NCBI GenBank assembly: GCA_964558935.1
Contig: CAZLFP010000003.1
Span: 39,684 to 103,683, forward strand
Direction: 5' to 3'
Length of the DNA stretch: 64,000 nt
Origin: an uncultured Gammaproteobacteria bacterium
GTDB lineage: Bacteria; Patescibacteriota; Patescibacteriia; 2-01-FULL-39-33
Position numbers and translations under genes: made by a program. Shown piece after piece: positions 22,763 to 42,419 of the stretch. The notes below the pieces were generated by a model. It saw only the letters and a program-made list of their open reading frames with translations. It did no database searches and was not told where the DNA came from. Position 1 is the stretch's first letter. Every line of letters starts with the position of its first letter.

Positions 22763-24025
22763 ATGCCCGCCAATTTTTTAAACAAACATTTAGATGTAAA
22801 AGTGTTGCAATACTTGGATATTATTAGCGCTATTGTGGTGGTTATTAACACGCGCGGTCAAGTTGCGTACATCAACAAACTGGGAGCTAAAGCCATGGGC
22901 TATACACCTCAGGAAATGATTGGCCAGGATTGGGTAGTCAATTTTTTACCCAAGGATATCCAGGCGGAAGTAAAGCAGTTGTCCCAAAAAATGCTGAAGG
23001 GAAAGATCAAGGTTGTGGAGCATTTTGAAAACCCAATTGTAACCAAAACCGGTCAGCAGCGTATCATTGCTTGGAGCGGTCAGATTCTAAAAGATGACCA
23101 GGGTAAGATTACCGGACATATGAGTACCGGCATAGACATTACAGATTTAAAGGAATCTCAACATCTTTTTCAGACAATTGTGGAACACAGTCATGATGCC
23201 ATTATGGTCACACAAATGAATGGTGTAGTCAGTTATCTAAGTCCATCGGCCAAAAGAGTGCTGGGTCATGACCCTAAGCGAATAGTCGGTATAGATCCGG
23301 ATATTATTGATCCTCAAGACAAGGATAAGGTGGCTCAAGCTTTCCAGAGTGCCCTGCAGGGTCAGTCTGGCTCACAGCTGGAATACCGGATTGTCACTGA
23401 TCAGGGACAGTCTAAATGGATTTCTCATTCTTGGTCACCCATTATATCGCAAGGTAAAATTAAAGAGATTGTGAGTATTATCTCTGATATTGATGAAACT
23501 AAACGCCGGACTGAACAGGAAGCGCAGAGAAAGGATCAGTTAATTGATGCACTTAGAAAATATGAGATCATGTTTAATATCAACCGAGACATTATTATCC
23601 AATTGGATCCCAAGGGCAAGATTTTAGACATTAACAACCGAGTAGAGGATTATGGCTATGCCAAATCTGATTTTATTGGAAAAAGCACTTTTAAGCTGGC
23701 CGGTGTTATTCCCAAGAAATGGTGGCCGAAAATCGTTCAAGTGTATGCACAGCGAATGAAAAAAGCAGAGGTGGAGAATTACGAGATACAGATTAAGGAT
23801 AAGCAGGGTAGTTTGTATGATGTGGAAATCAGCCCGGTTTCCATTCGAAATGACCAAGGCAAGGTTATTGGTGCCTTTGTCAGTCTACACGACATAACTC
23901 AGTTGAAAAAAAGTCAGCAAGAATTGAAAGATAAAATCAAGGATTTGGAAAGATTGAATGAACTGATGGTGGGTCGGGAATTAAAAATGGCTGAGTTAAA
24001 AAAGAAATTAAAGCAGTATGAATAA
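22763..24025 (+). CDS. Multi-PAS sensor protein with no catalytic output domain and a C-terminal coiled coil
   Basis: Three PAS-like modules (two PAS/PAC-like repeats with NTRGQVAYINKLGAKAMGYTPQEMIGQDW, MVTQMNGVVSYLSPSAKRVLGHDPKRIVG and DPKGKILDINNRVEDYGYAKSDFIGKS). Ends in a coiled coil ...ERLNELMVGRELKMAELKKKL. Start chosen at MPANFL (22763). Confidence 0.8.
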   Translation: MPANFLNKHLDVKVLQYLDIISAIVVVINTRGQVAYINKLGAKAMGYTPQEMIGQDWVVNFLPKDIQAEVKQLSQKMLKGKIKVVEHFENPIVTKTGQQRIIAWSGQILKDDQGKITGHMSTGIDITDLKESQHLFQTIVEHSHDAIMVTQMNGVVSYLSPSAKRVLGHDPKRIVGIDPDIIDPQDKDKVAQAFQSALQGQSGSQLEYRIVTDQGQSKWISHSWSPIISQGKIKEIVSIISDIDETKRRTEQEAQRKDQLIDALRKYEIMFNINRDIIIQLDPKGKILDINNRVEDYGYAKSDFIGKSTFKLAGVIPKKWWPKIVQVYAQRMKKAEVENYEIQIKDKQGSLYDVEISPVSIRNDQGKVIGAFVSLHDITQLKKSQQELKDKIKDLERLNELMVGRELKMAELKKKLKQYE

Positions 24026-24034
24026 TCCAAAAAT

Positions 24035-24520
24035 ATGACCAATATTTTAATTGTTAGTTTGGGAGTTGTTTGTTTTATAATCACCATTGCCAGTTATCCC
24101 AAACTGTTGAAACTGATGACGAATGTCAATCTGAAATCAGCCTGGCTGGTCATGTTGGGTTTTGTTATCAGTTTTACTCTGGGATATGCCTTGTTCATTT
24201 ATCTCTTATTATTTGAACTCACGATCGAAAATATTGATCTATTGGAAACCATAGTGAGTTTAATCTTTTTTTTAGGTGCTGTCTTTGTGGTTTTGTCTAC
24301 CCAGATTTTAATGTTGACCATCGAGAAGTTCAATAATTTGAATCAGGATTGTCAGCAGGTTAACGACAAGCTGGAAAAATTGAAAGATAGTTTAGATCAG
24401 AAGGTCAGAGAGAGAACAGCTCAATTGGAGAGAATCAGCAGTGCAACCATTAATCGGGAATCCAAAATGCTCAAGCTAAAAAAGGAATTGGACAGTATTA
24501 AGAAAAAATTGAATGATTAG
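24035..24520 (+). CDS. Small 4-TM membrane protein with a C-terminal signalling-helix-like coiled coil
   Basis: Four hydrophobic segments, then VRERTAQLERISSATINRESKMLKLKKEL, an S-helix-like ERT motif. Overlaps the histidine kinase start by 8 nt. Confidence 0.55.
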   Translation: MTNILIVSLGVVCFIITIASYPKLLKLMTNVNLKSAWLVMLGFVISFTLGYALFIYLLLFELTIENIDLLETIVSLIFFLGAVFVVLSTQILMLTIEKFNNLNQDCQQVNDKLEKLKDSLDQKVRERTAQLERISSATINRESKMLKLKKELDSIKKKLND

Positions 24521-27500
24521 CTTACTGTTAAACTTTTATTTTGTATCTGAACTGCTGTATGTGGTAGTGATTTTGGTGTTATTGTTATTACTTCTGCTGC
24601 AGTCGAAAAAAGATCAAAAAGCCTATTCTCTGGGTTGGTTAATGTACTTTGCGGTTATGTGGATGGGTCTTGATTTGATCAATTTGTTTTTTTCCGGACT
24701 AGACGTCAGTCTGCTGATATGGAAATTGATTCTCTTCTTTGGTTTGGCTATGGCCGTGTTTGCTTTGCGATTTATCGTCATTTATCTGTATAACCGGATC
24801 GGGTGGTATTGGGACTTGCTGTTTTTCTGCGTGCTTGCTGTTTTTTTTGGTGTCATTACCTTTACAGATCTTTTCATGATTGGGGTTAAGCCACTGGAGT
24901 ACTTTGGACAATCTAATTTCATAGTCGGCCCCTATTACTGGTTGTCTGCTTTGATTATCGTGCTGTCGGTTGTGATTGGCATTGTTTTGCTGGTAATTCG
25001 GTATTTTACAGAACAGAATCCTCAAGAGAAAAAAGATACCCGCAGCCTGTTACTGTCTTTCATTATGATCTTGGCGATAGCACCGGTGACCAATTTGTTG
25101 ATGCCCATGATGGGTATGGGTGGTTTCCGACTGGCGAATGTCGCTGTGACTGTTATCATTATTGTTTTTTTCTATATTATTTACCGACGCAATGCTTTGG
25201 GAATTGTTCTAAACAGAATTAAAATTAGAACCAAGATTTACTTAATATCTTTGATCCAGTTTATGCTCTTTACGCTGTGTCTGATCGTGATTATCGGCAG
25301 CGTATCGATCGGCCAGTTGGAACAAGAAATCGCCAATCATTTGGAATCGATCGCTTCAGCCAGAGCCAGTCATATTCAAACCTATTTTAATCAGAATTTG
25401 GATCGTTTACGTCTCATTACCAGTCGCACCCAGTTGAGAATGTTAGTTCGAGAGTATCAAAGCGAGCCTAGCTATGAAACTCAACAGCAGATGAATCGAA
25501 TTTTGCAAGATGCGATTATTCCGGTTCAAGAGCTGAGGTTCATCTCCATTGTTGATATAAACGGCCGGATCATCGCTTCGACCGATGAATCCATGTTGGG
25601 CCAGAATGTAAGTCAAGATCATTATTTTATCCATGGCCTTAAAGATGAACATGTTTCCTTTGAAAAACATATTGGCCATAATCATCATGACCTGTATTTT
25701 GCAGGACCTTTGACCTTAAATGATGAACTGATTGGCATAGGCGTATCTGCCATCGGACCTTTTGAGCTGTCAGACATTATTCGAGATCGGACCGGTTTGG
25801 GACAGACCGGTGAAGTCATGCTCGCTTTTCAAGACTTGGCCGGTAATTGTATTTTTCCCCTTGAGCGGCGTTTTGAGAGCCAAGCTTTGGAACCCGCTTG
25901 TATAGATGATCAGGATACAGCCATGGGCCGAGCTTTAAATCAAGAAGAGACGTTGTTGTTGGATCAGCAAGATTACCGGGGACAGACTGTGATTGCCGTC
26001 ACCAGGTACATACCCGGCATTGATCTGGGACTGGTGGCTAAGATTGATCGAGATGAAGCCTTGTCCGCTGTCTACAGTCTGGCTCTAATCTTGTTGCTGG
26101 CGGGTGTTAGTTTTTCTGCATTGTATTTTGTGGTGAACTATTTCATTGCCCGCTTCATTTCCCAGCCCATTGAAAATTTGAGAAAGGGTGCTCAAGAATT
26201 TGAAAAAGGCAATTATAACTTCCAGATAGACACAATTTCGCAAGATGAAGTCGGAGATTTGGGTCGTTCTTTCATTCAATTGATTGAATCAATCCGGAAA
26301 TCTCGTTCTGAGGTTGAGAAGAAGGTGGCTAAACAAACCAAAGAGATTGTGGCCTCCAACAAGAGGATGGCTTCTCAGCAGGAGGCGGTTTTAAATATTC
26401 TGGAGGATATTGAAGAAGAAAAAGACAGAACAGAGCAAGAAAAGGACAAAGCAAATACGATTTTGCAAGGTATTGGTGACGGAGTGATGGTGATTGATAA
26501 TGATCTGAGAATTACCCTGTTCAATAAAATGGCGTCTGAGATTTCCGGTTATTCTGCCAAAGAGGTTTTAAACAAAAAATACAATCAGTTCATTAAATTT
26601 GTAGATGAGAAGAATAAGAAGTCAAATGACGATTATATTAAAGAGGCCATGGCTACCAACAGTATTATGGAGATGCCGGATGATACTCTGTTGATCAAAA
26701 AAGACGGTAGTTTCGTACCGGTTAATGATTCAGCCGCTGCCCTATCTGACCGGGAAGGACATAGTATCGGTTGTGTGATTGTATTTAGAGATGTAACCAA
26801 AGAGAGAGAAGTCGACAAAATGAAGACAGAGTTTGTGTCGCTGGCTTCCCATCAGTTAAGAACTCCGCTGTCAGCCATTAAGTGGTTTTTGGAAATGCTT
26901 TTGGAGGGTGATGCCGGCAGAATTACCAAAAACCAGAAGAATTACTTACAGCAGGCTTTTGACAGTAATGAAAGGATGATTTCTTTGGTTAATGACTTGT
27001 TAAATATCTCCCGAATTGAATCCGGCCGGTTGTCACTGGTGCCCAAGCCTACGGATTTAATTGAATTGTCTCAAACTGTGATTGATGAATTAATGCCTTC
27101 CATCCGAGCCCATAACCAGATTTTTAAGTTCATTAAGCCTAAAAAATTGCCTAAAATTAAGCTGGATACCAATTTAATCGGGCAGGTTATTGCCAACTTG
27201 CTGTCAAATGCGATAAAATATACACATAGACAAGGTGAGATAGTTTTAAAGATTGAACGGAAAGACGGCCAAGTGGCGATTTCGGTTAAAGATCAGGGAG
27301 TGGGCATTCCCCAGAACCAGCAGAGTAAAGTTTTCCAAAAGTTCTTCAGAGCGGATAATGTCGTCACTTTGGAAACCGAAGGTTCCGGATTGGGTTTGTA
27401 TGTAGCTAAAAAGGTAGTTGAAGCATCAGGCGGACATATTGGATTTGTGTCTCAGGAGGGTAAGGGCTCCACTTTTACCTTTACTTTGCCGCTGTCTGGC

Positions 27501-27551
27501 AGTAAAGCCATCAAAGGTGAGAAATCTTTGGAAAAAATCAAGTTTAAATAA
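24513..27551 (+). CDS. Large membrane sensor histidine kinase (multi-TM N-terminal module, extracytoplasmic sensor domain, HAMP, PAS, HisKA, HATPase_c)
   Basis: ~7 N-terminal TM helices, a periplasmic Cache-like region, a second TM plus HAMP, a PAS module, an H-box ASHQLRTPLSAIKWF, an N-box LLSNAIKYT and G-boxes DQGVGIP / GSGLGLYVAKK. Confidence 0.9.
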   Translation: MISLLLNFYFVSELLYVVVILVLLLLLLLQSKKDQKAYSLGWLMYFAVMWMGLDLINLFFSGLDVSLLIWKLILFFGLAMAVFALRFIVIYLYNRIGWYWDLLFFCVLAVFFGVITFTDLFMIGVKPLEYFGQSNFIVGPYYWLSALIIVLSVVIGIVLLVIRYFTEQNPQEKKDTRSLLLSFIMILAIAPVTNLLMPMMGMGGFRLANVAVTVIIIVFFYIIYRRNALGIVLNRIKIRTKIYLISLIQFMLFTLCLIVIIGSVSIGQLEQEIANHLESIASARASHIQTYFNQNLDRLRLITSRTQLRMLVREYQSEPSYETQQQMNRILQDAIIPVQELRFISIVDINGRIIASTDESMLGQNVSQDHYFIHGLKDEHVSFEKHIGHNHHDLYFAGPLTLNDELIGIGVSAIGPFELSDIIRDRTGLGQTGEVMLAFQDLAGNCIFPLERRFESQALEPACIDDQDTAMGRALNQEETLLLDQQDYRGQTVIAVTRYIPGIDLGLVAKIDRDEALSAVYSLALILLLAGVSFSALYFVVNYFIARFISQPIENLRKGAQEFEKGNYNFQIDTISQDEVGDLGRSFIQLIESIRKSRSEVEKKVAKQTKEIVASNKRMASQQEAVLNILEDIEEEKDRTEQEKDKANTILQGIGDGVMVIDNDLRITLFNKMASEISGYSAKEVLNKKYNQFIKFVDEKNKKSNDDYIKEAMATNSIMEMPDDTLLIKKDGSFVPVNDSAAALSDREGHSIGCVIVFRDVTKEREVDKMKTEFVSLASHQLRTPLSAIKWFLEMLLEGDAGRITKNQKNYLQQAFDSNERMISLVNDLLNISRIESGRLSLVPKPTDLIELSQTVIDELMPSIRAHNQIFKFIKPKKLPKIKLDTNLIGQVIANLLSNAIKYTHRQGEIVLKIERKDGQVAISVKDQGVGIPQNQQSKVFQKFFRADNVVTLETEGSGLGLYVAKKVVEASGGHIGFVSQEGKGSTFTFTLPLSGSKAIKGEKSLEKIKFK

Positions 27552-27569
27552 ATCATAATCATTTAACAT

Positions 27570-27935
27570 ATGAAAAAACACAAGATTTTGGTGGTTGAAG
27601 ATGAAAAGACTTTGGCTCAAGCCTTGCTGGACAAACTGACGCGAGCCGGTTTTGATGTCATGGCTGCCTATAACGGTGAGGAGGGATTAAGTAAAGTTAA
27701 GTCCGAGAAGCCGGATTTGGTTTTGTTGGATATTGTCATGCCGGTTATGGATGGTTTGACCATGCTGACGGAATTGAGAAAAACCTCTCAAGTACCGGTC
27801 ATCATTTTGACCAATTTGTCTTCCGAAGAAAGTTTAAGCGATGCCATGAGTGGCGGCAGTTATGAGTACTTAGTCAAATCCAATTATTCCTTAGATGAAG
27901 TGATTGAACGCATAAATAATACTTTAAACAAGTAG
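27570..27935 (+). CDS. Single-domain response regulator (REC only)
   Basis: Acidic pocket EDE, phosphoacceptor Asp in VLLDIVMPVMDG, conserved T/K (ILTNL...K). No output domain. Confidence 0.85.
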   Translation: MKKHKILVVEDEKTLAQALLDKLTRAGFDVMAAYNGEEGLSKVKSEKPDLVLLDIVMPVMDGLTMLTELRKTSQVPVIILTNLSSEESLSDAMSGGSYEYLVKSNYSLDEVIERINNTLNK

Positions 27936-27936
27936 C

Positions 27937-28302: not shown

Positions 28303-28304
28303 TT

Positions 28305-29996: not shown

Positions 29997-30005
29997 ACAT
30001 ATATT

Positions 30006-31533: not shown

Positions 31534-31598
31534 GAGTTGGGTGTTTAGAAATTAAGCCATTTAGTTTCTAAATCCTGACTCTTAATTCACAACTGCGG

Positions 31599-34500: not shown

Positions 34501-37500
34501 CCTATACTTCACCCATCCGCAATGTCGGAGCCAATGCATCATGGGATAGTATCGCTTGGATTCCCACCATGCCTTTTGGTAAAGAACTGCCCAATGGCGG
34601 TTCGGCTGAAACAGCCTATTTAATGGGTAACGTTGATATGTCAGACAATGTACTCCTTTTGCATCTGAGTGCCACTTCCACTTCTATTATTGATTGGTCA
34701 GGCAATGGCTATAATGGAACATACAATGGAGCCTTAACTGGTCAGACTGGAAAATTGAATGGTGCTTTAGGCTTTGACGGTACAGATGATATTGTGACTT
34801 TTACGTATAATTTGAATAGTACCTTGGGTGGTACTGCCTCACTTGCATTCTGGATTAATACCACAGACACCGGTAATAACAATGTTGCTGATGCTCCGGC
34901 AGTGACCGGTGTTGAAGAGTCGGGTGGAGATGATGATGTTTTTTGGGGTTCTTTAAATGCTTCCGGTAAGTTTGTTATTCAGGCAGGTAATACAGCCGGT
35001 GCAGTTAGTAGTACGACTATTAATGACGGCAGTTGGCATCACGTTGTTATGACCAGAAACTCCACCACGGGAGAGGTTAAAATATATGTTGATGGTGTTT
35101 TAGAAGATACGGCTATCTCAGATTTGGGAGTCAAGGGCAATGCGTTCTATACGATTGGCCGTTTAACCGATACCGGATTTCCAGCTAATCATTACTATTT
35201 ACAAGGCACTTTAGATGAACTGGCCATCTTTGATACTGTGATTGATGAGGATATGGTAATGGAATTATATAAACGAGGAGCCTTGAGAATTAAGTATCAG
35301 GTAAAGTCATGTAATGATAGCGGTTGTGTCGGAGAGTCTTTTATTGGACCTGATGGTACGACCGGTGATTATTACGATGAAACAGATAATACTACCAATG
35401 GGTTGCCAAGTCTAACTTTAACCAATGTGTCAGATAATCCATACTTTCAATACCGAGCGACTTTGGAAACGGACGATACTGCTTTAACTCCAGAGCTCAG
35501 AAGTTTTACGACTAACTATACCGGAGGAGGTTTAGCTAATGTCACTTATCAGTTATCAGATGATGATGGCACTACTTGGTACTATTGGGGTGGCTCATCT
35601 TGGGATGTAGCCGGAGCGTCCAATTCAAGCACAGAAGCTACAGTTGATGCTAACATTAGTGACTTTAGTACCAGTACGGAACAAATTAAATTTAAAGCCT
35701 TTCTAAACAGTGAAGGCACTCAGAATGTTGAACTGGATAATGTCTTCCTAGGCTTTACTCCCGGTGGCTCACCTTGGACATATAGTGACTGGGATGCCGG
35801 TGGTGGAGAAGTTAATCCGGATGGAACAATAGATGCCAGCGGAGGCAATCCGGGTTCGTTTGCCAAAATAACCGTTCCCAATGGTCAAAATGATGAATTG
35901 GGTGGCTATTTTGAACAAGCTTTTACCACCACGGTAGATAATCCTTCCGGTACCGTTGATTTTGACTATAAGATGATTGCTTTTAATGCCACGGCTAATG
36001 TGTCGCAAATTAGAATATTTGTAGATACTTCATCTGGTGCACCAACTAATCAGGTAGGTAGTTCAATAGATGTGACTAGTGCTGGAAACTGGACAAGTGC
36101 CTCTCAAATAGATATTTCTTCTGACTTGGGAACTGCAGGAACATACTATTTAAAAGTTGCCTATTGGGTTGAAACTCCAGGCGGTGGCGGAGGTGGTCCT
36201 TTTGTGGTTGGTTTTGACAATGTGGATTTAAACTGGACTTTAACTACATATCCGGATGATGAACCAACGATACAGCCAACCGAATCGTATGAGGGTCCTG
36301 GTGTTAATTTCTGGTCATCTTTCTCTGAAACTGCCACCAAAGGAACAGGGGAAATCTACTACCAACTTTCAGATGACGATGGTTCCAATTGGTATTATTG
36401 GGGTGGTTCTTCATGGGTCAGTGCCGGAGCTTCGAACTATAACACGGCTAGCGTAATTAATTCCAATATTGGCACTTTTAGCACTTCAACCGAAACTATT
36501 TTATTTAAAGCTTTCTTAGACAGCGATGGCACACAACAAGTTCAATTGGATCAGGTTGCCATCTATTGTTCCAAATTATATGATTGGCCTTTTTCTACGC
36601 CGGGAGATTATACCTATGATGACCAGAAGATAGAGGTAACCGGTGGTCAAGCTCAATTGGTTGAGTCTGGAGGATATGTTATTAGATCGACTGAGTACGC
36701 AATAACAGACTATACTGGTGTTACAGGAGAAATTACACTGACCAATGATTTATCCTCCAATTATTTTGTTATGGTTAAAGGTAGTGATGGTGATGGTACT
36801 GATACTGGTAATAGGGGTCCAGATGAAAACTATTTTGCTTTAACTTCAGATCCGTTTGGCACCGGAGATTTAGCTGTCACAGGAGAAAATAATACACTAG
36901 GCTTCACTCGCGGAGGTAATGTAGACGGCTGGACCGGTGTGATTACAGTCGTGGAGTGTTTAAATAATTGTTCATCAGATGGTTTTGAACTGTTAGATGT
37001 GGCCAGGGTGACCCACAGTGGAACAACTTTAACCGGTACAGACACTTTTACTAGCGGTTGGGGATCGGATATAGACCAGGTCATGTTATTTGGCGGATAT
37101 GATGGAGCAGGCTGTAATACCGCAGATACAGATAATTCAGATCATAAGGTCTGTCATGCTCGCATTTGGCCGTCAGGAACTAACACTATTAATTGGCAGA
37201 GAAACGATACGGATGTCAGCAGCATGACAACTGCCTATTCAACTGTTATGGCTTTAAAGTGGGGTAGTAATTGGACAGTTCAAAGAGTCACAGTTTCCGG
37301 CAGTGCCGGTGGTGCTGGTGCTAATGCCACCGGTGAGTACAATACTGCTACAATTAATTCTGTAGCTAGAGATAATACCTGGGTATGGGGAACTGGTTGG
37401 ACTAATGACCAGGGTATTGGCGATGCGTCCGAGGGTACCTTAATCACTCTTGGTGATGGAGTTAATCAAAATACCAATGAAACCAGTGTTGCAGTTGGTC

Positions 37501-38498
37501 AGGAGTATTCAGATACCAGAGAATTTGAAGTTTATGCTTTGACCCATGATGATATTTCTGTGGATTATCGGTTTAAAGCAGATGGCAATGGTGCAGATTT
37601 AACTTATGATCAAACTGTTGATACAGCTGCCAGTTCTACAGCTAGAATGGCTTTGGGGTATAATACCTGTAATGGTACTGGTGATGCTTATCCTCGTCCC
37701 ATTTTTTCAGCCAGATATACTTCAAATACCAATATTCAACTACTCAGAAATCGTTGGAATCAAGCTTTTGTGGCCTGGACCCAGAGTATTGATTTCTCCG
37801 GTATTAATAAGCCAATTACCTATCCCTCGGATGATCCGACCATCCAACCCAGTGCTTTCTATAATCTAGGAGGTGTAAGTGAGTTAACTGCTTTTGAGGA
37901 AACAGCCAATAAAGATGGGGGAGAGATATATTATCAGTTATCCAATAATAACGGAGCCACCTGGTTATACTGGGGAGGATCAAATTGGACCACAGCTGGG
38001 GCTTCAGACTATAATACAGCCAGTGTGGTCAATACTAATATTGGAAGTTTTCCCACTTCAACCACTCAATTCCTATTCAAAGCTTTCTTGAGTGGTAATG
38101 GTTCTCAACAAGTGGCTTTAGATAATGTTAGAATCTTTTGGGGTGAAGATGCCGGAGGTGGAGGTTCAGTCGGTTATGAGACCAGTGGTTTTTTGGTGTC
38201 TTCAGCCTTGGACATGGGAGACGCATCTCCGGTGCAAGTCATTGAATGGAGCGAAGACAGACCGGCTGATACTGAAATCAAGCTACAAGTTAGAACTGCA
38301 CCGGACAGTGGTGGCAGTCCCGGTACTTGGACAGATTGGTTTGGAGAAACAGGATCTGGTACTTTTTTTACAACCACCAGTCCTACCTTAATACCAACCA
38401 CCATTAATGCTAACCAGTGGTTGCAGTACAGAGCCGAATTAAGTGGAGATGGCACGGTAACTCCTGTGTTATATGATATAAATCTTAATTACAAATAA
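31599..38498 (+). CDS. Giant (2,299-aa) modular pseudopilin-like surface protein: prepilin-type N-terminus, Cys-rich modules, an AT-rich insert with a TM hairpin, a LamG/ConA-like lectin domain and triplicated ~100-aa repeats
   Basis: A single uninterrupted ORF. The N-terminus NG^QGLLEVILALAIFSFIAAAMMSMAL has E at +5 followed by a hydrophobic alpha1 helix. A LamG-type motif set spans ~34870-35350 (LAFWINT...SWHHVVMTRN...IYVDGVL...LDELAIFDTV). Three YYQLSDDDG.WYYWGGSSW...FKAFL...G.Q.V.LD.V repeats. Embedded in the second filament locus. Confidence 0.85.
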   Translation: MRFSVFNRLVKNHNGQGLLEVILALAIFSFIAAAMMSMALGGFQALERGGEQTEAEALAQEGLEAVKAIQERAWNEMEYGVSAVSNVSSQWEFVGEGTTENIGQFTRTITIADVCRDASDNIDTCPSNYTDEHTKRVIVEVTWDTLQGNINTVRQEGYLTNWDSTDWTQTDWVGGDGQSIWSDTTQYDTGSNVDDTIAGQISLAAILGDGCGLKVWPFTTAGNYTYDSQDIEVTGGNAQLVGTVVSGSIQDSGFNNTSDTDYNWPFTTAGNYTYDSNKITVTGGAAQLYEISEVCQGTPDPCAGIGVQGTCTSQGGCSWDPADCSGSPTACGSLPEGDCSACGCSLVPGNCSNNGACGDNGAEGACTNCSCATCSWDATSCPYVEAWDGQKWVKEHEAFPYAVFKSVVNTTYDSLPSLACIDGHARVRIYESLPEITYLQYFQVFAAKQTGGYIKPDVEGRPRVMNNWNSPDFCITSLGQSGQDCLNIIKDHDEEFFEPEIDKSKIDEWIEMEFRDVKNDEAKLYLVARNQQLIAIYYQYIAHILGRKQADLFSEVSAWPGFYQLTNNWWTNSLKVQVEVWDGSNWQRQGVISAGFHMPGSGADDFLVSLKKLDDSNNLKVRIRFMSGAYGIDYIALDDSLDQELDIKAVNPKEIYVNGKLSDDYLVSIGYNEYVELVYDCNLDEDYYFGIGGYYNIDFYDSSRQKDPISAWSELMDLFTGGKKYLIRTAVDKGLYKKDNCNQNYTTAELAAQAQLSPIAYVIYFEILLILVSGILFIVGYDRRRLVIGFTIGTTITIVLLYGFTVVIAGGTCGGTLNCSGCNETACNLCATCTWNAGSCSGTPSVCTTHSTEDQCSDCGCSWDEANCFGTSSVCSTYATEGNCNGQQGCIWSGEYATTSPSIYPTSSYSAPGVFSWDSFSATTTVSGSPFVDDESSEFNGAKSNTQYDSANYWLELTSAGQTAGSGTYTSPIRNVGANASWDSIAWIPTMPFGKELPNGGSAETAYLMGNVDMSDNVLLLHLSATSTSIIDWSGNGYNGTYNGALTGQTGKLNGALGFDGTDDIVTFTYNLNSTLGGTASLAFWINTTDTGNNNVADAPAVTGVEESGGDDDVFWGSLNASGKFVIQAGNTAGAVSSTTINDGSWHHVVMTRNSTTGEVKIYVDGVLEDTAISDLGVKGNAFYTIGRLTDTGFPANHYYLQGTLDELAIFDTVIDEDMVMELYKRGALRIKYQVKSCNDSGCVGESFIGPDGTTGDYYDETDNTTNGLPSLTLTNVSDNPYFQYRATLETDDTALTPELRSFTTNYTGGGLANVTYQLSDDDGTTWYYWGGSSWDVAGASNSSTEATVDANISDFSTSTEQIKFKAFLNSEGTQNVELDNVFLGFTPGGSPWTYSDWDAGGGEVNPDGTIDASGGNPGSFAKITVPNGQNDELGGYFEQAFTTTVDNPSGTVDFDYKMIAFNATANVSQIRIFVDTSSGAPTNQVGSSIDVTSAGNWTSASQIDISSDLGTAGTYYLKVAYWVETPGGGGGGPFVVGFDNVDLNWTLTTYPDDEPTIQPTESYEGPGVNFWSSFSETATKGTGEIYYQLSDDDGSNWYYWGGSSWVSAGASNYNTASVINSNIGTFSTSTETILFKAFLDSDGTQQVQLDQVAIYCSKLYDWPFSTPGDYTYDDQKIEVTGGQAQLVESGGYVIRSTEYAITDYTGVTGEITLTNDLSSNYFVMVKGSDGDGTDTGNRGPDENYFALTSDPFGTGDLAVTGENNTLGFTRGGNVDGWTGVITVVECLNNCSSDGFELLDVARVTHSGTTLTGTDTFTSGWGSDIDQVMLFGGYDGAGCNTADTDNSDHKVCHARIWPSGTNTINWQRNDTDVSSMTTAYSTVMALKWGSNWTVQRVTVSGSAGGAGANATGEYNTATINSVARDNTWVWGTGWTNDQGIGDASEGTLITLGDGVNQNTNETSVAVGQEYSDTREFEVYALTHDDISVDYRFKADGNGADLTYDQTVDTAASSTARMALGYNTCNGTGDAYPRPIFSARYTSNTNIQLLRNRWNQAFVAWTQSIDFSGINKPITYPSDDPTIQPSAFYNLGGVSELTAFEETANKDGGEIYYQLSNNNGATWLYWGGSNWTTAGASDYNTASVVNTNIGSFPTSTTQFLFKAFLSGNGSQQVALDNVRIFWGEDAGGGGSVGYETSGFLVSSALDMGDASPVQVIEWSEDRPADTEIKLQVRTAPDSGGSPGTWTDWFGETGSGTFFTTTSPTLIPTTINANQWLQYRAELSGDGTVTPVLYDINLNYK

Positions 38499-38992
38499 TG
38501 AATAAAGGCTTTACTTTAGTTGAATTAATCATTTACATTGCCATTATTGGTCTCATGGTGGTGTCTTTTGCTACTTTTAGCATTGCCATCTCAGATTCAA
38601 GAGAAAAGTCATATGTCGTGTCAGAAGTCCATCACAATTTAAGGGATCCGTTTACCTTAATGACTAAGAGAGCCAGGTTTGCCAGTAGCGTAGTTACACC
38701 AACAGCCGGTAATTCTTCTACCACTCTGGAGTTAGACATGCCGGGAGCCAGTCCTAATTTAACCTTTAAAGTCATTGATGATATCTTAACTGTGCAAGAA
38801 GGAGTCGGTACACCCGTCGCTGTGACCAGTGACGAGGTTCAAGTCACTGAGTTAGCTTTTACCAATTATGCCAGTCCCGGCTTAAGATCCAATTTAAAAA
38901 TCGAGTATACGGTTGAATATGCTCATGAAGATGGAGATCCCATCTATACTTATGACAAAAGCATTGAAACCACAGTCAGAGTTAGAAAATAA
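38498..38992 (+). CDS. Pseudopilin / minor pilin
   Basis: Prepilin signal MNKG^FTLVELIIYIAIIGL. Its start overlaps the stop of the giant gene. Confidence 0.75.
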   Translation: MNKGFTLVELIIYIAIIGLMVVSFATFSIAISDSREKSYVVSEVHHNLRDPFTLMTKRARFASSVVTPTAGNSSTTLELDMPGASPNLTFKVIDDILTVQEGVGTPVAVTSDEVQVTELAFTNYASPGLRSNLKIEYTVEYAHEDGDPIYTYDKSIETTVRVRK

Positions 38993-38993
38993 T

Positions 38994-39401
38994 ATGAATA
39001 TTTTAAACAATCAAAAGGGAATAGCGGCTTTTCTGGTGATTGTGATGATTTCGGCCGTAGCTTTAATTATGGCATATTCAGCAGCTATCTTAGGTTTGGG
39101 TGAAATTGAAATGGGTTTTGACTCGCAACAAGGCGGACAGGCTTTTGCCCTTGCCGATGGTTGTATTGAAGAAGCCATGCGCAGATTGAGATTGGACACT
39201 GATTACACAGGCAGTTCTTTGAGTTTTGGAGCCAATTCCTGTATAATTAGTGTAACCGGAGCTGGCAGTAATCGTACTATATATACTACCAGTACTGTTG
39301 GTGAATATTATAAAAAGATTGAAGCTCAAGTTTCTTTTACAGACAGTCCGACAACTGGTGTAGTTTTAAGTTTAGACAGTTGGGAAGAAAGCGATCAATA
39401 G
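38994..39401 (+). CDS. PilX-like minor pilin
   Basis: N-terminus MNILNNQKGIAAFLVIVMISAVALIMAYSAAILGLGEI is PilX/GspK-like. Start chosen at 38994, because the track start at 38913 would overlap the previous gene by 80 nt. Confidence 0.55.
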   Translation: MNILNNQKGIAAFLVIVMISAVALIMAYSAAILGLGEIEMGFDSQQGGQAFALADGCIEEAMRRLRLDTDYTGSSLSFGANSCIISVTGAGSNRTIYTTSTVGEYYKKIEAQVSFTDSPTTGVVLSLDSWEESDQ

Positions 39402-39406
39402 CAGAC

Positions 39407-40750
39407 ATGTTACAATACGGCCAACAATCTGTAGGTATCGATATTTCAGATCAAACCATTGAGGTGGCTGAAATTCTTAGTGGTTTTCGCAAAAAAATCA
39501 CGAGCTTGGGTCAAAGAAAATTACCAACCGGTTTGGTGGAAAGGGGTAGAATAAAAGATGTCAAAGCTTTAACCAAGGAATTGGATGCCTGTTTCAAACA
39601 AGCCAAACCCAAACCCATTAATTATCGACGAGCTGTTTTTTCTTTGCCGGAAAGCCAAGTTTATACGCATGATTTTATCCTTAAGGAAGCTAACAAAAAG
39701 AAATGGGAGGATCTGATCAAACAAGAAGCACTGGCTAATTTTCCCATTCCTGAGAATGATTTGGTTTATGCCTATACCATACTCACTCACAACAAGCAAG
39801 GAGCCACGGTTTTGTTGGCAGCCAGCAGTTACCAAGTGATTAATGAATGGCGAGCATTCTTTCGACAAGCTAAAATCCGAGTTGATTATTTTGCGGTTGA
39901 AGCTTTGGCTATCTTCAGAGGTTTGTTTGTCGGTGGTGTTAAAGAGCCGGTGGCTATAATTGATTTGGGAGCTTATACAACTTTAATCTCTATCTTTGAC
40001 AAACATGGTTTGGAATTCACTTATTCCGTGAATACAGCCGGCAACAGATTGAACAGTGAAATTGCCAAAGCTCTTAATATAGGTCAGGATCAAGCTGAAA
40101 AAATGAAGATTAAGCTGGGTCTTACAGATCCGGACAGCCAGGTTTTCAATGTTATTTTAAAGACTTTGGAGAAAATTACAAGAGGTATTGATGTGTCTGT
40201 GGATTACTACCAGAACAAGTCAGGTCAACAAATAAAAAAAGCGGTGTTAATTGGGGGTACGAGCCGATTAAAAGGCTTATTGGAATACTTTCAGAGTAAT
40301 TTAGAGTATGAGGTACAATTGGGTTCATCCAAATTGTTTAAAACCCATAAACTGGACTTGGGCTATATTGAAGCCATTGGTTTGGCCAATATTGGATTAA
40401 AAGAAAAATGGTTGAAAAAAGACCCGGTCTTTGTATTAAAAGATGTTAAAAAACCGTCAAAAAAGTCTAAATCTAGCGGAAAAAAAGCGGGAAAAAAGAC
40501 TCGGGATGTTGAGTCGATGTCTAGCGAGTATTATACTCTTGAGGATCAGGAAATTGAATTTGAAGCGAAAAAATTGCGCCGACAACAGATTACTTTTTTA
40601 ATTATTGTTATCATTGGAGCGATCGCTATCAGTTTGGCTTTTTGGTACCAGAATGAACAGAAGAAAAAGAAAGCCCAGGAATATGAACAGCAACTGGAAA
40701 CTTTTTTGGAAGATCGGCAGCGTGAGATTCAGTACAATATTGAACAGTAG
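39407..40750 (+). CDS. PilM-like actin-fold assembly protein fused to a Lys-rich linker and a C-terminal TM anchor (PilM-PilN-like fusion)
   Basis: N-terminus SVGIDISDQTIEVAEI matches the PilM fold. C-terminus has KKPSKKSKSSGKKAGKK followed by a TM (ITFLIIVIIGAIAISLAFWY) and a coiled coil. No separate pilN or pilO in this locus. Confidence 0.75.
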   Translation: MLQYGQQSVGIDISDQTIEVAEILSGFRKKITSLGQRKLPTGLVERGRIKDVKALTKELDACFKQAKPKPINYRRAVFSLPESQVYTHDFILKEANKKKWEDLIKQEALANFPIPENDLVYAYTILTHNKQGATVLLAASSYQVINEWRAFFRQAKIRVDYFAVEALAIFRGLFVGGVKEPVAIIDLGAYTTLISIFDKHGLEFTYSVNTAGNRLNSEIAKALNIGQDQAEKMKIKLGLTDPDSQVFNVILKTLEKITRGIDVSVDYYQNKSGQQIKKAVLIGGTSRLKGLLEYFQSNLEYEVQLGSSKLFKTHKLDLGYIEAIGLANIGLKEKWLKKDPVFVLKDVKKPSKKSKSSGKKAGKKTRDVESMSSEYYTLEDQEIEFEAKKLRRQQITFLIIVIIGAIAISLAFWYQNEQKKKKAQEYEQQLETFLEDRQREIQYNIEQ

Positions 40751-40831
40751 TGGATAATTTAGGACATTTGCTTGTATTTTAAACTGTGTTATAATATAAT
40801 TAACATAAATATTAGAAATAAGTTTGCTACT

Positions 40832-41323
40832 ATGAAAAAAACTGGTTTTACCTTAATTGAATTATTAATTGTGATTGCCATTATTGCAATTATCGCAGCT
40901 GTGGCTTTTGTGGCTTTGGATCCTCTAACACGTTTTAGAGACTCAAGAGATTCAGCCAGATGGTCTGATGTAACGGCTATGTTATCTGCGATTGTGGTTG
41001 ATCAGGTTGACAATGGAGGTAATTATCTCTGGTCGATTCAAAATGCGACAACGGCGACAAATGTTATGATCAGCAATGCTACCACTACCACTGGTTGTAA
41101 TGCCACTGCTTGTGATACAGCCGTAACCAGTACAGCTGCTTGCATTAACATGCAAGGCTTGGTGGATGAGGGTTATCTGGGCACTATGCCAGTTAGTCCG
41201 AACGGCAGCGGCAGCTGGGATTCCGCTTTAACCGGTTATTATTTGACCAAGAACACGAATGGCTCGATTACAATCACGGCATGCGAAGCTGAGAATTCCG
41301 GTACAATCAGTTTGACAAGGTAA
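40832..41323 (+). CDS. Type IV pilin paralog 1 (Thr/Ala/Asn-rich globular domain, three Cys in the C-terminal half)
   Basis: Prepilin signal MKKTG^FTLIELLIVIAIIAII. Start chosen at 40832, not the track start at 40772. Preceded by an AT-rich promoter-like region. Confidence 0.85.
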   Translation: MKKTGFTLIELLIVIAIIAIIAAVAFVALDPLTRFRDSRDSARWSDVTAMLSAIVVDQVDNGGNYLWSIQNATTATNVMISNATTTTGCNATACDTAVTSTAACINMQGLVDEGYLGTMPVSPNGSGSWDSALTGYYLTKNTNGSITITACEAENSGTISLTR

Positions 41324-41339
41324 GAAATTTATAATCTAA

Positions 41340-41852
41340 ATGCGGAGGCTTAAGGATCAAAGAGGTTTAACTTTAATAGAGCTGCTAGTCGTTGTAACGA
41401 TATTGGGTATACTAGCAGCTGCTATTTTTGTGGCTTTAAATCCGGTTAAATTGTTTAAAGACTCCAGAGACGTGGTCAGAAGGCAGGATGTGGAAACGAT
41501 TCTAACGGCAATTGGTTTGTACCAGGTTAACAGCGGAGGTATTAATCCGACCGAGATTCAGGGTTTAACTGCGGGTCGAGTGTATATGATCACCGACGGA
41601 GCCCAAGCCACCGGCTGTGATGATTACGGAACCAATGGCTGTGATACCGAGGTATACGGTGATAGTTATTGTGCTGATTTGGATGAATTGGTGGATAATG
41701 GCTATTTGGGCGATATTCCGATCAGTCCCACCGGCACGACCACTTGGTCTGAAGACATGACCGGTTACACGATTGAAAAATCATCCAACGGCAACATCTT
41801 CATTCGAGCCTGTGAATCTGAAAGCGGAGATGAAATTTGGGTAGTAAGATAA
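41340..41852 (+). CDS. Type IV pilin paralog 2
   Basis: Prepilin signal QRG^LTLIELLVVVTILGILAAAIFVALNP. Shares DSRD, GLYQV and C-terminal GYLGDIPISPTGTTTWSEDMTGYTIEK blocks with paralog 3. Confidence 0.85.
   Translation: MRRLKDQRGLTLIELLVVVTILGILAAAIFVALNPVKLFKDSRDVVRRQDVETILTAIGLYQVNSGGINPTEIQGLTAGRVYMITDGAQATGCDDYGTNGCDTEVYGDSYCADLDELVDNGYLGDIPISPTGTTTWSEDMTGYTIEKSSNGNIFIRACESESGDEIWVVR
41703..41770 (+). repeat. 68-nt exact repeat (copy 1) shared by pilin paralogs 2 and 3
   Basis: TATTTGGGCGATATTCCGATCAGTCCCACCGGCACGACCACTTGGTCTGAAGACATGACCGGTTACAC is identical to 42199-42266. Confidence 0.9.
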
Positions 41853-41853
41853 T

Positions 41854-42348
41854 ATGAATACAAAAGGTTTAACTTTAATTGAATTATTGATCGTGGTGGC
41901 CATTTTGGCCATTTTGGCTTCAATTATTTTTTTAGCTTTGAATCCGGTTAAGAGATTCCAAGATTCTCGCGATGCGGTTAGAGCTGAAGATATTGAGAAT
42001 ATCATTAATGCCATTGGTTTGTACCAGGTGGATAATGGTGGTATTTTGCCGTCTGAAATTCAAGGTTTGACAGCTGACAGAGTGTATATGATTACCGACG
42101 GAGATGAAACCAGCGGTTGTGATGATTATAATGATTGCGATACGGAGGTGTATGCAGATAACTACTGTGCTGATTTGGATATTTTAGTCACGGAAGGTTA
42201 TTTGGGCGATATTCCGATCAGTCCCACCGGCACGACCACTTGGTCTGAAGACATGACCGGTTACACAATTGAAAAGACAGCAGCCGGTAATATTTTTATT
42301 CGTGCTTGTGAATCTGAGGGCGGGGATGAGCTTTGGTTATCCAGATAA
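41854..42348 (+). CDS. Type IV pilin paralog 3
   Basis: Prepilin signal NTKG^LTLIELLIVVAILAILASIIFLALNP. C-terminal 26 aa are identical to paralog 2 (24-codon conversion tract, two silent differences). Confidence 0.85.
   Translation: MNTKGLTLIELLIVVAILAILASIIFLALNPVKRFQDSRDAVRAEDIENIINAIGLYQVDNGGILPSEIQGLTADRVYMITDGDETSGCDDYNDCDTEVYADNYCADLDILVTEGYLGDIPISPTGTTTWSEDMTGYTIEKTAAGNIFIRACESEGGDELWLSR
42199..42266 (+). repeat. 68-nt exact repeat (copy 2)
   Basis: Identical to 41703-41770. Flanks diverge except for about 10 further nt with two mismatches. Confidence 0.9.
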
Positions 42349-42363
42349 TTGATGAGTGTTAAA

Positions 42364-42386
42364 CCAGCTCATAAGAGCTGTTTTTT
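42364..42386 (+). terminator. Rho-independent terminator closing the pilin paralog array
   Basis: CCAGCTC-ATAA-GAGCTG hairpin followed by a T6 run. Confidence 0.8.
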
Positions 42387-42419
42387 GATTTCTGGCGATT
42401 TTTTTGCTAAGATAAAGTC

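Follow-up and report, generated by a model that had tools for sequence, protein, structure and literature searches.

Several elements of the gene cluster described below are known from other systems. TM7x (Nanosynbacter lyticus, Saccharibacteria) has a second type IV pilus (T4P) locus, T4P-2, encoding a thin pilus without PilT and PilD, for which host binding was shown experimentally (Grossman et al. 2025, PMC12206443). In Xanthomonas, a classical HisKA kinase feeds the receiver-only protein EmvR, which binds PilB and reduces its ATPase activity (PMC11973254), and another receiver-only protein, DrdR, binds both PilB and PilT and changes ATPase activity (PMC13507683). PilG and PilH of Pseudomonas are further output-less T4P regulators that act post-translationally (review, PMC11656802). 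Modular pilins are exemplified by Streptococcus sanguinis PilB with a vWA module and PilC with a ConA-like lectin module, and modular pilins with lectin modules located at the tip have been described (Raynaud et al. 2021, PMC8179133). In that survey, Magasanikbacteria pilins are among the commonest modular architectures catalogued, and the most extreme modular pilin noted has 860 aa (PMC8179133).

We analysed a 64-kb stretch of DNA (the window) from an ultrasmall CPR/Patescibacteria bacterium and observed that, as in TM7x, a second T4P locus lies beside a canonical pilMNO-pilB-pilT-pilC-pilA-pilD locus (locus 1). This second locus, locus 2, is a genuine type IV pilus gene cluster. It spans 22763-42348 on the + strand, in the order 3xPAS protein, membrane coiled-coil protein, kinase, two receivers, PilB2, PilC2, four minor pilins, PilM and, at the end, three major-pilin paralogues. 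Pfam and NCBIfam searches upheld every domain call of the initial annotation (multi-PAS protein, kinase, two REC-only regulators, GspE/PilB, GspF/PilC and a PilM with a TM anchor). Its proposal of a separate extension machine also held. PilB, PilC, PilM, four minor pilins and major pilins were all found, and Pfam profiles detected no PilT, PilD, PilN or PilO homologues in 22763-42386. The following features flank the genes.

22518-22590, + strand: tRNA-Asn(GTT), upstream boundary of locus 2 (ARAGORN).
22596-22619, + strand: terminator-like hairpin after the tRNA-Asn, upstream boundary (terminator scan, sequence).
22645-22653, + strand: candidate extended -10 promoter element TGGTATAAT before the first gene (consensus match alone, read from the sequence).
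42365-42390, + strand: terminator-like hairpin with T-run closing the block (6-bp stem, 4-nt loop).

The hairpin proper at the end of the block covers 42365-42380 and is followed by the T-run; with a stem of just 6 bp it falls short of the strong terminator announced earlier. As all the ORFs of ≥100 aa between 27 and 52263 are on the + strand, co-orientation by itself is no evidence of an operon. The tight intergenic gaps within locus 2 (-8 to 65 nt), together with the upstream tRNA-Asn and terminator, are better evidence.

The first part of the locus encodes the sensory proteins and regulators.

22763-24025, + strand: soluble 3xPAS protein with a C-terminal coiled coil and without an output domain (Pfam PAS_9/PAS_4/PAS_3, three stretches).
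24035-24520, + strand: 161-aa membrane protein with three hydrophobic helices and a C-terminal coiled coil (hydropathy).
24513-27551, + strand: sensor histidine kinase, 1,012 aa (Pfam HisKA_7TM + dCache + HAMP + PAS + HisKA + HATPase_c).
27570-27935, + strand: REC_a, receiver-only response regulator (Pfam Response_reg, 89 bits).
27937-28302, + strand: REC_b, receiver-only response regulator, 2 nt upstream of pilB2 (Pfam Response_reg, 80 bits).

The ORF of the 3xPAS protein opens with TTG at 22736, but translation more likely begins with the ATG at 22763. The 161-aa membrane protein matched no Pfam family and gave no tblastn match in the related loci; its tail motif is similar to that of the PAS protein. 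Neither of these two proteins is a conserved cassette member among the related loci, and PAS-only or PAS-rich proteins flank the cassette in related loci L022 and L081 too. The kinase combines a 7TM receptor module with an extracytoplasmic Cache domain, has nine hydrophobic segments by hydropathy, and its H (H780), N, G1 and G2 boxes are all intact. Its core is 30-52% identical to that of the kinases present in 21 of the 30 related loci. The kinases of many relatives are bare HisKA-HATPase proteins of 189-290 aa without a sensor, so what is sensed may be the machine's own state and not the environment. Both regulators have 121 aa, consist of the Response_reg domain alone (Pfam) and retain the acidic pair, the phospho-acceptor Asp, the Thr/Ser and the Lys. 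They resemble generic OmpR/PhoB-type receiver domains and are not specifically similar to PilG or PilH, and the orthologue group of REC_a was found in L001 and L014.

No other kinase was found in the 64-kb window, and the only three receiver genes found there all lie within the two pilus loci. The third is in locus 1, the relevant features of which are as follows.

6063-6449, + strand: receiver-only protein of locus 1, between PilB1 and PilT (Pfam).
6451-7521, + strand: PilT of locus 1.
9795-10577, + strand: PilD of locus 1, sole prepilin peptidase of the 64-kb window (Pfam A24_N_bact + Peptidase_A24).

The locus-1 receiver is a paralogue of REC_b (50% identity). It was kept at the same position in 12 of 13 T4P-1-type metagenome loci, with 57-77% identity, and is conserved more strongly than PilT itself; the kinase may act on it as well.

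The assembly proteins of locus 2 are listed next.

28305-29996, + strand: PilB2 extension ATPase, 563 aa (MshEN N-domain + T2SSE, Pfam 427 bits).
30006-31088, + strand: PilC2 platform protein, 360 aa, 3 TM (Pfam T2SSF x2, 211 bits).
39380-40750, + strand: PilM2 with a C-terminal membrane anchor (PilM_2, 93 bits; NCBIfam pilM; alternative ATG at 39407).

The Walker A, Walker B, His box and tetra-Cys motifs of PilB2 are intact, and the c-di-GMP MshEN motif is absent. Its best NCBIfam model was type_IV_pilB (540 bits, under the 675.65-bit equivalog cut-off), with the PilB model scoring slightly above the GspE model. The ComGA model aligned with residues 177-441 only, at 262 bits against a cut-off of 300. 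These profile scores support the assignment of PilB2 to the full-length PilB type and not to the ComGA type. The N-terminus of PilC2 is about 45 residues shorter than that of PilC1, and the NCBIfam GspF/PilC alignments begin at profile positions ~52-58; the ComGB model gave 159 bits against its 240-bit cut-off (NCBIfam). PilM2 is built from PilM_2, a Lys-rich linker, a single TM helix (~405-425) and a 30-aa tail, and it matched PilM_2 and FtsA, not GspL. The TM anchor is present in ~11 of 20 PilM orthologues, followed by 3-278 residues, and is accompanied by SH3_3 in L081 and L099.

The pilins are encoded on both sides of pilM2.

31075-31533, + strand: minor pilin 1, GspH/FimU-like, G|FSMVE (N_methyl; weak GspH/ComGD/ComGE matches).
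31599-38498, + strand: minor pilin 2, PilV/GspI-like, the giant modular pilin, 2,299 aa.
32484-34268, + strand: insert in the giant pilin (aa 296-890), missing from every pilin homologue.
38498-38992, + strand: minor pilin 3, in PilW/GspJ-like position, G|FTLVE (N_methyl).
38994-39401, + strand: minor pilin 4, PilX/GspK-like, MNILNNQKG|IAAFL, Glu5 absent (likely start ATG 38994).
40772-42348, + strand: three tandem pilins, candidate major subunits (N_methyl, 29-37 bits).

We observed class III signal peptides with Glu5 in six locus-2 proteins (31075-31533, 31599-38498, 38498-38992, 40772-41323, 41340-41852 and 41854-42348), and a seventh has the leader without Glu5. The earlier pseudopilin calls stand for the six with leader and Glu5. 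They do not stand in the same form for ORF 38913-39401, which has neither an N_methyl nor a Pfam match; read from ATG 38994 it lacks Glu5, which makes it a PilX/GspK-like member. Its orthologues, of 128-152 aa, were found in those related loci whose fetched DNA extends that far. By profile-profile alignment, the four minor pilins correspond one-to-one and in the same order to the locus-1 set. Minor pilin 1 aligned with the p175 family (hhalign 95.8% over 134 columns), the pilin module of the giant pilin proved homologous to the PilV-like pilin of locus 1, minor pilin 3 aligned with the p188 family (98.0% over 156 columns), and the best match of minor pilin 4, a weak one, was the x276 family (47%). 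The tandem pilins (40832-41323, within 40772-41323; 41340-41852; 41854-42348) matched the locus-1 major pilin family (hhalign 99.3%). Among themselves, p170 and p164b are 75% identical and p170 and p183 43%. Their orthologues, 51-62% identical, are the best-conserved pilins of the cassette. All pseudopilin models of NCBIfam scored far under their cut-offs, the best for p170 being GspG.

As in the modular pilins, non-pilin modules come after a pilin module at the N-terminus of the giant pilin, and its N_methyl score (17.7 bits) is under the Pfam cut-off of 21.2. The pilin module (1-~170) is followed by short WPFTTAGNYTYD repeats, the insert (296-890), a LamG/pentaxin-like module (~1050-1230; LamG by Pfam match), a ~105-aa module present three times (~1302-1385, 1551-1655 and 2075-2179), a unique module (1690-2070) and a conserved C-terminal beta-sandwich (2193-2299); CBM-like and discoidin-like folds are among the modules. 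Its positional homologues are hypervariable in size (297-2,414 aa) and fixed in position. The insert comprises a Cys-rich stretch, a ~370-aa CBM-like domain, a TM hairpin (760-782 / DRRR / 788-810, by hydropathy) and another Cys-rich stretch. It adjoins repeated WPFTTAGNYTYD...VTGG.AQL motifs, has a GC3 of 0.252 compared to 0.29-0.37 in the remaining gene, and has as homologues P0031-P0033, which are stand-alone proteins of ~700 aa, and part of P0017. The internal TM hairpin was unexpected and goes beyond the earlier description of this pilin. Judged from its sequence, a hairpin with a positive cytoplasmic loop should hinder the extraction of the giant pilin into the filament.

We compared 30 related cassette loci with 50 other PilB loci, the latter mostly labelled Saccharibacteria. 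A receiver gene lies ≤2 kb from pilB2 in 28 of the 30 related loci and in none of the 50 others; in 18 of the 30 it immediately precedes pilB2, and a receiver or a kinase is present in 29. PilT and PilD were found within 10 kb in none of the 30, and the same is true of PilN and PilO. The 30 related loci show synteny with locus 2, and the order of the cassette is identical in L081, L099 and L100. The kinase-receiver pair changes its place in Magasanikbacteria, Uhrbacteria, Ryanbacteria and Falkowbacteria while keeping its link to the cassette. At least four placements occur. The pair lies upstream, either on the same strand or divergently, between pilB and pilC, or ahead of pilM, and in some loci the sensor genes sit downstream of the pilins instead. 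The tie of the two-component genes to the pilus genes is not due to chance. In a quick NJ distance tree, in which deep branching is tentative, PilB2 and its relatives form a clade of their own, apart from the Saccharibacteria PilBs of T4P-1 and T4P-2 types. None of the 120 best PilB2 homologues carries a receiver-domain fusion, so there is no Rosetta-stone support. The gene-order comparison proposed in the initial annotation thus showed sensor and regulator genes linked to pilus genes in many genomes. Since this linkage is accompanied by an ATPase of PilB type, the readings that would have refuted that annotation, namely a canonical Com or T2SS set with no link to the sensor genes, or sensor genes conserved elsewhere without the pilus, fail.

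We consider it fairly probable that locus 2 represents a conserved CPR type IV filament cassette for an adhesive pilus, in which kinase-driven receivers act on the motor. The cassette consists of a histidine kinase with receiver-only regulator(s), PilB, PilC, four core minor pilins, PilM and major pilin(s). The prepilins of locus 2 are plausibly processed by the shared PilD, which would cleave them from its position in locus 1. The four minor pilins would prime assembly and finish at the tip, where the PilV-like pilin would show its very large, fast-evolving array of lectin-like beta-sandwiches (LamG, CBM-like), making the filament adhesive and able to bind a host or surface. PilB2, PilC2 and the membrane-anchored PilM2 would polymerise the major pilins, and retraction would either be lacking or rely on PilT from locus 1. 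The kinase, to which 7TM, Cache and PAS sensors have here probably been added along with PAS and coiled-coil proteins in accessory roles, would phosphorylate the receiver-only proteins. Because these have no DNA-binding output, they would act directly on the motor, switching extension on or off through PilB2 or possibly PilM2 or PilC2, and one of the two may be a phosphate sink. Through the receiver between PilB1 and PilT, the same signal could coordinate both pili. From the gene neighbourhood and by analogy we infer the phosphotransfer from kinase to receiver and the binding of receiver to PilB, and post-translational control through the receiver-only proteins is plausible. The recurrence of the kinase/receiver and pilus cassette in many CPR lineages suggests signal-controlled attachment.

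It is rather unlikely that the two-component genes serve expression control or a phosphorelay only, the receivers being sinks or shuttles to a distant DNA-binding regulator and not acting on the motor. Receiver-only proteins like Spo0F are relay intermediates, and REC_b has Spo0F as one of its PDB matches; the likeness to OmpR/PhoB-family receiver domains, the failure to find a PilB-receiver fusion and the OmpR-type regulator-kinase pair in the CPR-like contig L082 are in line with such a role. However, the 64-kb window encodes no DNA-binding regulator or Hpt protein, and none was detected in the examined cassette loci. A receiver adjoins pilB in most loci and lies between pilB and pilC in several, its paralogue between PilB1 and PilT is better conserved than PilT, and experiments in other systems have shown receiver-only proteins binding PilB or PilT directly. 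We also hold it very unlikely that locus 2 encodes a competence-type DNA-uptake pilus instead of an adhesion pilus. CPR bacteria are thought to scavenge DNA, Com pili are not known to have a retraction ATPase and use few minor pilins, p152 has weak ComGD and ComGE matches, and recA/recX adjoin the TM7x T4P-2 locus. But comEA, comEC, dprA and recA are all missing from the 64-kb window, within which the earlier suggestion of a DNA-uptake filament found no support. PilB2 is full-length (563 aa, N-terminal MshEN) with the ComGA model below its cut-off, PilM is present whereas the Com model set has none, and the lectin-like giant pilin is the dominant feature. For TM7x, the T4P-2 pilus is reported to make no contribution to competence (PMC12206443).

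It is highly improbable that locus 2 makes a T2SS-like pseudopilus, driving proteins such as the large surface protein itself through the envelope, and no long pilus. GspC, GspD and GspM are absent, the anchored protein is a PilM_2 match and not GspL, PilB2 scores slightly better with the PilB than with the GspE model, and all the pseudopilin-model scores are far under their cut-offs, even though GspG is the best NCBIfam match of p170. The gene order (E, F, H-, I-, J-, K-, L-like, then G-like) does reproduce the T2SS inner-membrane set, without a retraction ATPase and with an actin-fold, TM-anchored L-like protein; yet the nearest experimentally studied analogue, TM7x T4P-2, forms real filaments. 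It is unlikely, too, that the 2,299-aa gene specifies no working tip pilin here, its insert with the TM hairpin being an assembly chimera or a recent insertion that makes the protein a membrane-tethered surface adhesin or a dead end. The frame is open over 6.9 kb, NCBI holds the same protein (P0001, 100% identity), the flanking pilin parts are intact, and the insert is 43-50% identical to its homologues, making it no recent copy of any sequence found. The suspicion arises from an insert that is missing from all the pilin homologues, differs in GC3 (0.252), equals a complete stand-alone module of ~700-aa proteins and stands beside the repeated WPFTTAGNYTYD...VTGG.AQL motifs, and from a DRRR cytoplasmic loop that fits the positive-inside rule.

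Returning to the adhesive, receiver-controlled pilus that we favour, we compared locus 2 with the known systems. It has the PilB-family ATPase, the PilC platform and the class III leaders of the type IV filament superfamily (T4aP-like, monoderm-style), and the prepilin peptidase would be supplied by the locus-1 PilD (9795-10577). Canonical T4aP was rejected: PilT, PilN and PilO are absent from locus 2 and, within 10 kb, from its 30 relatives. PilM is present and often has a TM anchor. The Com pilus was rejected on the ComGA and ComGB models below cut-off and the presence of PilM. Locus 2 resembles the T2SS platform (GspE, F, G, H, I, J, K, L) in having a single ATPase and no retraction motor, a set of four minor subunits with Glu5 missing from the last, and an actin-fold protein that is bitopic. 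Unlike T2SS, it has no secretin, GspC or GspM, and its anchored protein is PilM-like by profile; CPR bacteria are not known to have a typical outer membrane. Identity with the type II secretion system was rejected as GspD, GspC, GspL and GspM domains were not found. PilS-PilR of Pseudomonas, Myxococcus and Geobacter likewise places a histidine kinase and a regulator inside the pil cluster; PilR, however, belongs to the NtrC-type enhancer-binding proteins and has AAA+ and HTH domains, whereas the locus-2 regulators are receiver domains only. Pil-Chp (PilG/PilH) was set aside because the kinase is of HisKA/HATPase_c type, and CheA, CheW and MCP domains are absent from the 64-kb window.

Like TM7x T4P-2, locus 2 has its own PilB, PilC and PilM, no PilT or PilD, and a minor pilin that carries a large additional module. 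PilN2, PilO2, the recA/recX neighbours and the placing of most pilins in other loci are peculiar to TM7x, for which no kinase or receiver is reported, unlike locus 2. The Saccharibacteria PilB-PilC...PilM loci compared here have no receiver ≤2 kb away and lack the four-minor-pilin block, and their PilB is in a separate NJ clade. Identity with the TM7x type was rejected on the separate PilB2 clade (NJ, tentative), the absence of PilN/PilO and the different gene order. Gene neighbourhood likens the locus-2 receivers to the EmvR/DrdR class, with putative motor binding. EmvR/DrdR and PilG/PilH are proteobacterial and encoded by orphan genes or within a CheA-type chemosensory system, whereas the locus-2 kinase and receivers lie within the pilus operon beside pilB and are conserved across CPR lineages. 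The giant pilin shares with modular pilins the N-terminal pilin module and grafted modules of lectin types, thought to be tip-exposed; compared to those catalogued, it is 2,299 aa long (homologues up to 2,414), is a PilV/GspI-like core member and carries a TM hairpin. The initial annotation, which recognised no established comparable system, was thus overstated, given TM7x T4P-2, EmvR/DrdR and the modular pilins. The ingredients are known, namely a PilT-less second pilus in Saccharibacteria, PilB-binding single-domain regulators in Xanthomonas and modular pilins, and their combination as found in locus 2 is apparently undescribed.

Locus 2 consists of fifteen closely packed plus-strand genes (22763-42348; gaps of -8 to 65 nt). 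Profile searches confirmed all the domain calls made in this region by the initial annotation, as well as its statement that no PilT, PilD, PilN or PilO is encoded within the block. The features of the locus and its flanks are the following.

22518-22590, tRNA-Asn gene, upstream of locus 2
22596-22619, terminator-like hairpin, upstream of locus 2
22645-22653, TGGTATAAT element, upstream of locus 2
locus 2, plus strand, protein with three PAS domains, found by profile searches
locus 2, plus strand, 161-aa protein with three hydrophobic helices and a coiled coil
locus 2, plus strand, kinase of 1,012 aa (7TM module, Cache, HAMP, PAS, HisKA, HATPase_c), with intact H, N, G1 and G2 boxes
27570-27935 and 27937-28302, plus strand, two receiver-only proteins (REC_a and REC_b) of 121 aa each, with the full set of catalytic residues
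locus 2, plus strand, PilB2 (MshEN and T2SSE), with Walker A/B, His box and tetra-Cys motifs
locus 2, plus strand, PilC2 with two T2SSF domains
locus 2, plus strand, pilins with class III leaders
locus 2, plus strand, PilM2, a PilM with a TM helix at its C-terminus
42365-42390, short hairpin and T-run at the 3' end of locus 2

The common orientation of these genes is by itself uninformative, because all the ORFs of at least 100 aa from 27 to 52263 lie on the plus strand. GC skew was positive throughout 1-52263, and this part of the window seems to be located on one replichore with a strong gene-strand bias. A promoter scan gave 69 sites compared to 52 expected by chance. Directly 3' of locus 2 are genes for a ZIP transporter, a 9-TM protein belonging to no family (43343-44611) and a YibE/F protein, and the surroundings of the pilus loci (17306-19190 and 42420-45714) carry oxidative stress genes for a thioredoxin-like protein, a rubrerythrin and a desulfoferrodoxin. 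The PAS-only protein and the 161-aa membrane protein both lack an output domain, and their coiled-coil ends (23890-24025 and 24400-24520) carry motifs that resemble each other, GRELKMAELKKKL and NRESKMLKLKKEL, respectively. They look like detached sensor modules that might pair via the coiled-coil helices.

The closest relatives of PilB2, at 58-64% identity, are found in MAGs of Patescibacteria that bear the labels Magasanikbacteria, Falkowbacteria, Uhrbacteria and Ryanbacteria. When all the window proteins were compared by tblastn with 80 fetched loci, 30 of them were found to share a cassette having the order receiver(s), pilB2, pilC2, p152 (first minor pilin), large pilin, p164a (third), p162 (fourth), pilM2 and major pilin(s). 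In an NJ tree, the PilBs of the cassette loci and PilB2 formed one clade, apart from the PilT-linked and PilT-less PilB clades of Saccharibacteria and from PilB1 of the window; the deep nodes of this quick distance tree are tentative. Locus 2 is a real, conserved feature. The extracytoplasmic part of PilM2 is highly variable, as two orthologues of 581-704 aa have an SH3_3 domain after the TM helix (L081, 17020-19134; L099, 17023-18768), while others extend merely 3-30 residues past this helix or do not have it.

The two-component link to the cassette is real. Of the 30 cassette loci, 28 have a receiver gene no more than 2 kb from pilB2, compared to none of the 50 other PilB loci, which bears out the earlier proposal that the sensor and regulator genes are tied to the pilus genes. 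In the two cassette loci having no nearby receiver, the upstream sequence is incomplete, with a kinase immediately 5' of the cassette in one of the two. A receiver or a kinase is present in 29/30. Neither PilT nor PilD was found within 10 kb in any of the 30. The kinase-receiver pair moves in position yet remains with the cassette. It lies upstream, either on the same strand (for example in L001, L006 and L101) or in divergent orientation (eight loci, L002, L003 and L010 among them), or else between pilB and pilC (L005, L007, L099 and L100) or before pilM (L041); in L081 the PAS, Cache and kinase genes are 3' of the pilins. The kinase core is conserved at 30-52% identity, and the sensor part ranges from none (proteins of 189-290 aa) to the 7TM-Cache-HAMP-PAS arrangement of the window. 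Bare HisKA/HATPase kinases of 189-289 aa with no recognisable sensor were seen in Uhrbacteria, Ryanbacteria and Falkowbacteria (L099, 10862-11983; L100, 2565-3730; L101, 3645-4917); two of these three kinases lie between pilB and pilC. A PAS-only protein was seen again in L022 and L081, and the 161-aa protein had no counterpart among the fetched loci. The sole kinase and all three receiver genes of the window are located in its two pilus loci.

Locus 1 (666-13200) is canonical, encoding PilM, PilN (N-terminus MPNINLLP), a PilO-like protein, PilB1, a receiver, PilT, PilC1, a pilin, PilD and four minor pilins. We scanned metagenome contigs with the window PilT and obtained 14 loci, 13 of them of this type (T4P-1). 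The receiver (6063-6449 in the window; L085-L097) is placed between PilB1 and PilT in 12 of these 13, and it is conserved at 57-77% identity, compared to 36-58% for PilT and 47-67% for PilB1. It shares 50% identity with REC_b, to which it is sister in the receiver tree. Receiver-only proteins are therefore a standing feature of both pilus motors within this clade. No kinase was seen in the T4P-1-type contigs found with PilT. A 139-aa single-TM protein (9372-9791) of no Pfam family is encoded between the major pilin and PilD of locus 1; it occupies the same position in L085, L088 and L091, with 33-42% identity.

Profile-profile alignment of the orthologue families paired each of the four minor pilins of locus 2 with a different one of the four of locus 1, in unchanged order. 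The matches were 95.8% over 134 columns for p152 with p175, 99.0% over 157 columns for the N-module of the giant pilin with p228, and 98.0% over 156 columns for p164a with p188; the top match of p162, x276, was weak. The likeliest start of the p162 ORF (38913-39401) is the ATG at 38994, giving MNILNNQKG/IAAFL, a leader without Glu5, which makes p162 the PilX/GspK-like member. By the pairing of the minor pilins, the 2,299-aa protein is the PilV/GspI-like member of the core set, hugely extended at its C-terminus, and not an additional component. The three tandem pilins matched the locus-1 major pilin family at 99.3%, and are the best-conserved pilins among the relatives (51-62% identity).

Homologues of the giant pilin at the same position of the cassette vary from 297 to 2,414 aa. 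Common to them are a pilin module at the N-terminus, whose leader reads GQ(S/T)L(L/I)E, a ∼105-aa module of which the giant pilin has three copies, and a C-terminal domain of ∼105 aa. Pfam gave only sub-threshold matches on the giant pilin itself, to LamG and pentaxin (∼1126-1229) and N_methyl, and a PDB sequence search gave no match; on the homologues, Laminin_G_3, DUF4082 and related jelly-roll families were found. This generic domain evidence is consistent with the modules forming a binding array. A public record of this protein, P0001 (2,277 aa, 100% identical), begins 22 codons 3' of the ATG at 31599 (31599-31667), and it would not be recognisable as a pilin because this start drops the class III leader and Glu5.

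Residues 296-890 of the giant pilin (32484-34268) are missing from all its pilin homologues. This insert has a GC3 of 0.252, compared to 0.29-0.37 elsewhere in the gene, and contains a CBM-like domain, a pair of Cys-rich stretches and a TM hairpin whose loop reads DRRR. Its module is the core of stand-alone proteins of ∼700 aa (P0031-P0033; 43-48% identity), and is also found within P0017, a 2,877-aa protein labelled Woesearchaeota (41% identity). A membrane hairpin in a pilin should hinder its extraction into the filament. The giant pilin may stay tethered to the membrane, the hairpin may serve some other role, or the insert could be an assembly artefact. In L083 (1-12000), a stand-alone homologue of the insert (701 aa) is part of a five-gene unit (245, 701, 167, 197 and 244 aa) having no Pfam family on any gene; the first four genes are repeated at equal sizes directly 3' on one contig.

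The gene content, the intact motifs, the minor-pilin correspondence and the conserved kinase-receiver linkage to pilB were directly observed, and the following scheme is proposed alongside them. Prepilins of locus 2 would be processed by PilD of locus 1. The four minor pilins would prime the assembly, with the lectin-like giant pilin at the tip, and PilB2, PilC2 and PilM2 would extend the filament; retraction would either not occur or be lent by PilT of locus 1. The kinase would transfer phosphate to a receiver, which would act on the motor directly. We favour direct motor control by the receivers because these regulators have no output domain, adjoin the ATPase genes and have a precedent in EmvR and DrdR, which consist of a receiver alone and change the ATPase activity upon binding to PilB or PilT (PMC11973254, PMC13507683). 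Against it, the best 120 PilB2 homologues are all MshEN and T2SSE only, with no receiver fusion, and the receivers are generic in sequence. Examined for similarity to PilG, PilH or CheY, they gave generic PDB matches, the top ones being the PhoP, CovR and PhoB receivers. Control by c-di-GMP is unlikely, since neither PilB has the MshEN motif RLGxx(L/V/I)(L/V/I)xxG...; an NCBIfam c-di-GMP motif match was below its cut-off.

Direct motor control by receivers could be extended to both pili. Across a wide range of CPR lineages, each of the two motors would then have a receiver-only regulator as an integral subunit, located between PilB1 and PilT in one and next to PilB2 in the other. The receivers would be driven by the kinase of the adhesive-pilus cassette, which has a conserved catalytic core and a sensor part varying from none to 7TM-Cache-PAS. 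Through this phospho-switch, an episymbiont would toggle between a motility pilus and a giant-adhesin pilus upon sensing a host. We consider this joint reading tentative and rather unlikely. If true, type IV pili would have a signalling layer of their own, embedded in the operon and hitherto undescribed.

To our knowledge, every CPR bacterium in culture lives attached to other microbes, and no attachment or motility device other than type IV pili has been demonstrated by experiment in this group. A pilus cassette with its own kinase and receivers offers a concrete, testable regulatory circuit for this attachment, made of small and soluble proteins (a 120-aa receiver, the kinase core and PilB). 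The receiver between PilB1 and PilT is better conserved than any other protein of the canonical locus, which suggests that the principle is general in these organisms. The lectin-like pilin, hypervariable, very large and at a fixed position of the cassette, is a clear candidate for determining the host range.

In membership tests, locus 2 fell outside the Com pilus, T2SS, Pil-Chp, PilS-PilR and the T4P-2 orthogroup of TM7x. In the literature on Patescibacteria/CPR pili, we found no description of one with a response regulator or kinase, which is weak evidence of absence as the coverage was incomplete. The initial annotation recognised no established system of this kind, which appears to hold for the combination and not for its ingredients, each of which has a precedent. 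TM7x, a CPR bacterium, has a second T4P that is devoid of PilT and PilD and is involved in host binding (PMC12206443); single-domain regulators acting on PilB are already known (PMC11656802, PMC13507683, PMC11973254); and modular lectin pilins, including those of Magasanikbacteria, were catalogued in a 2021 survey (PMC8179133). What appears to be new is the embedding of a kinase and receiver in a pilus operon, conserved in several CPR lineages, the parallel receiver in the canonical locus, and the very large size of the variable pilin, which reaches about 2,400 aa, well above the 860 aa cited in that survey as the extreme case (PMC8179133).
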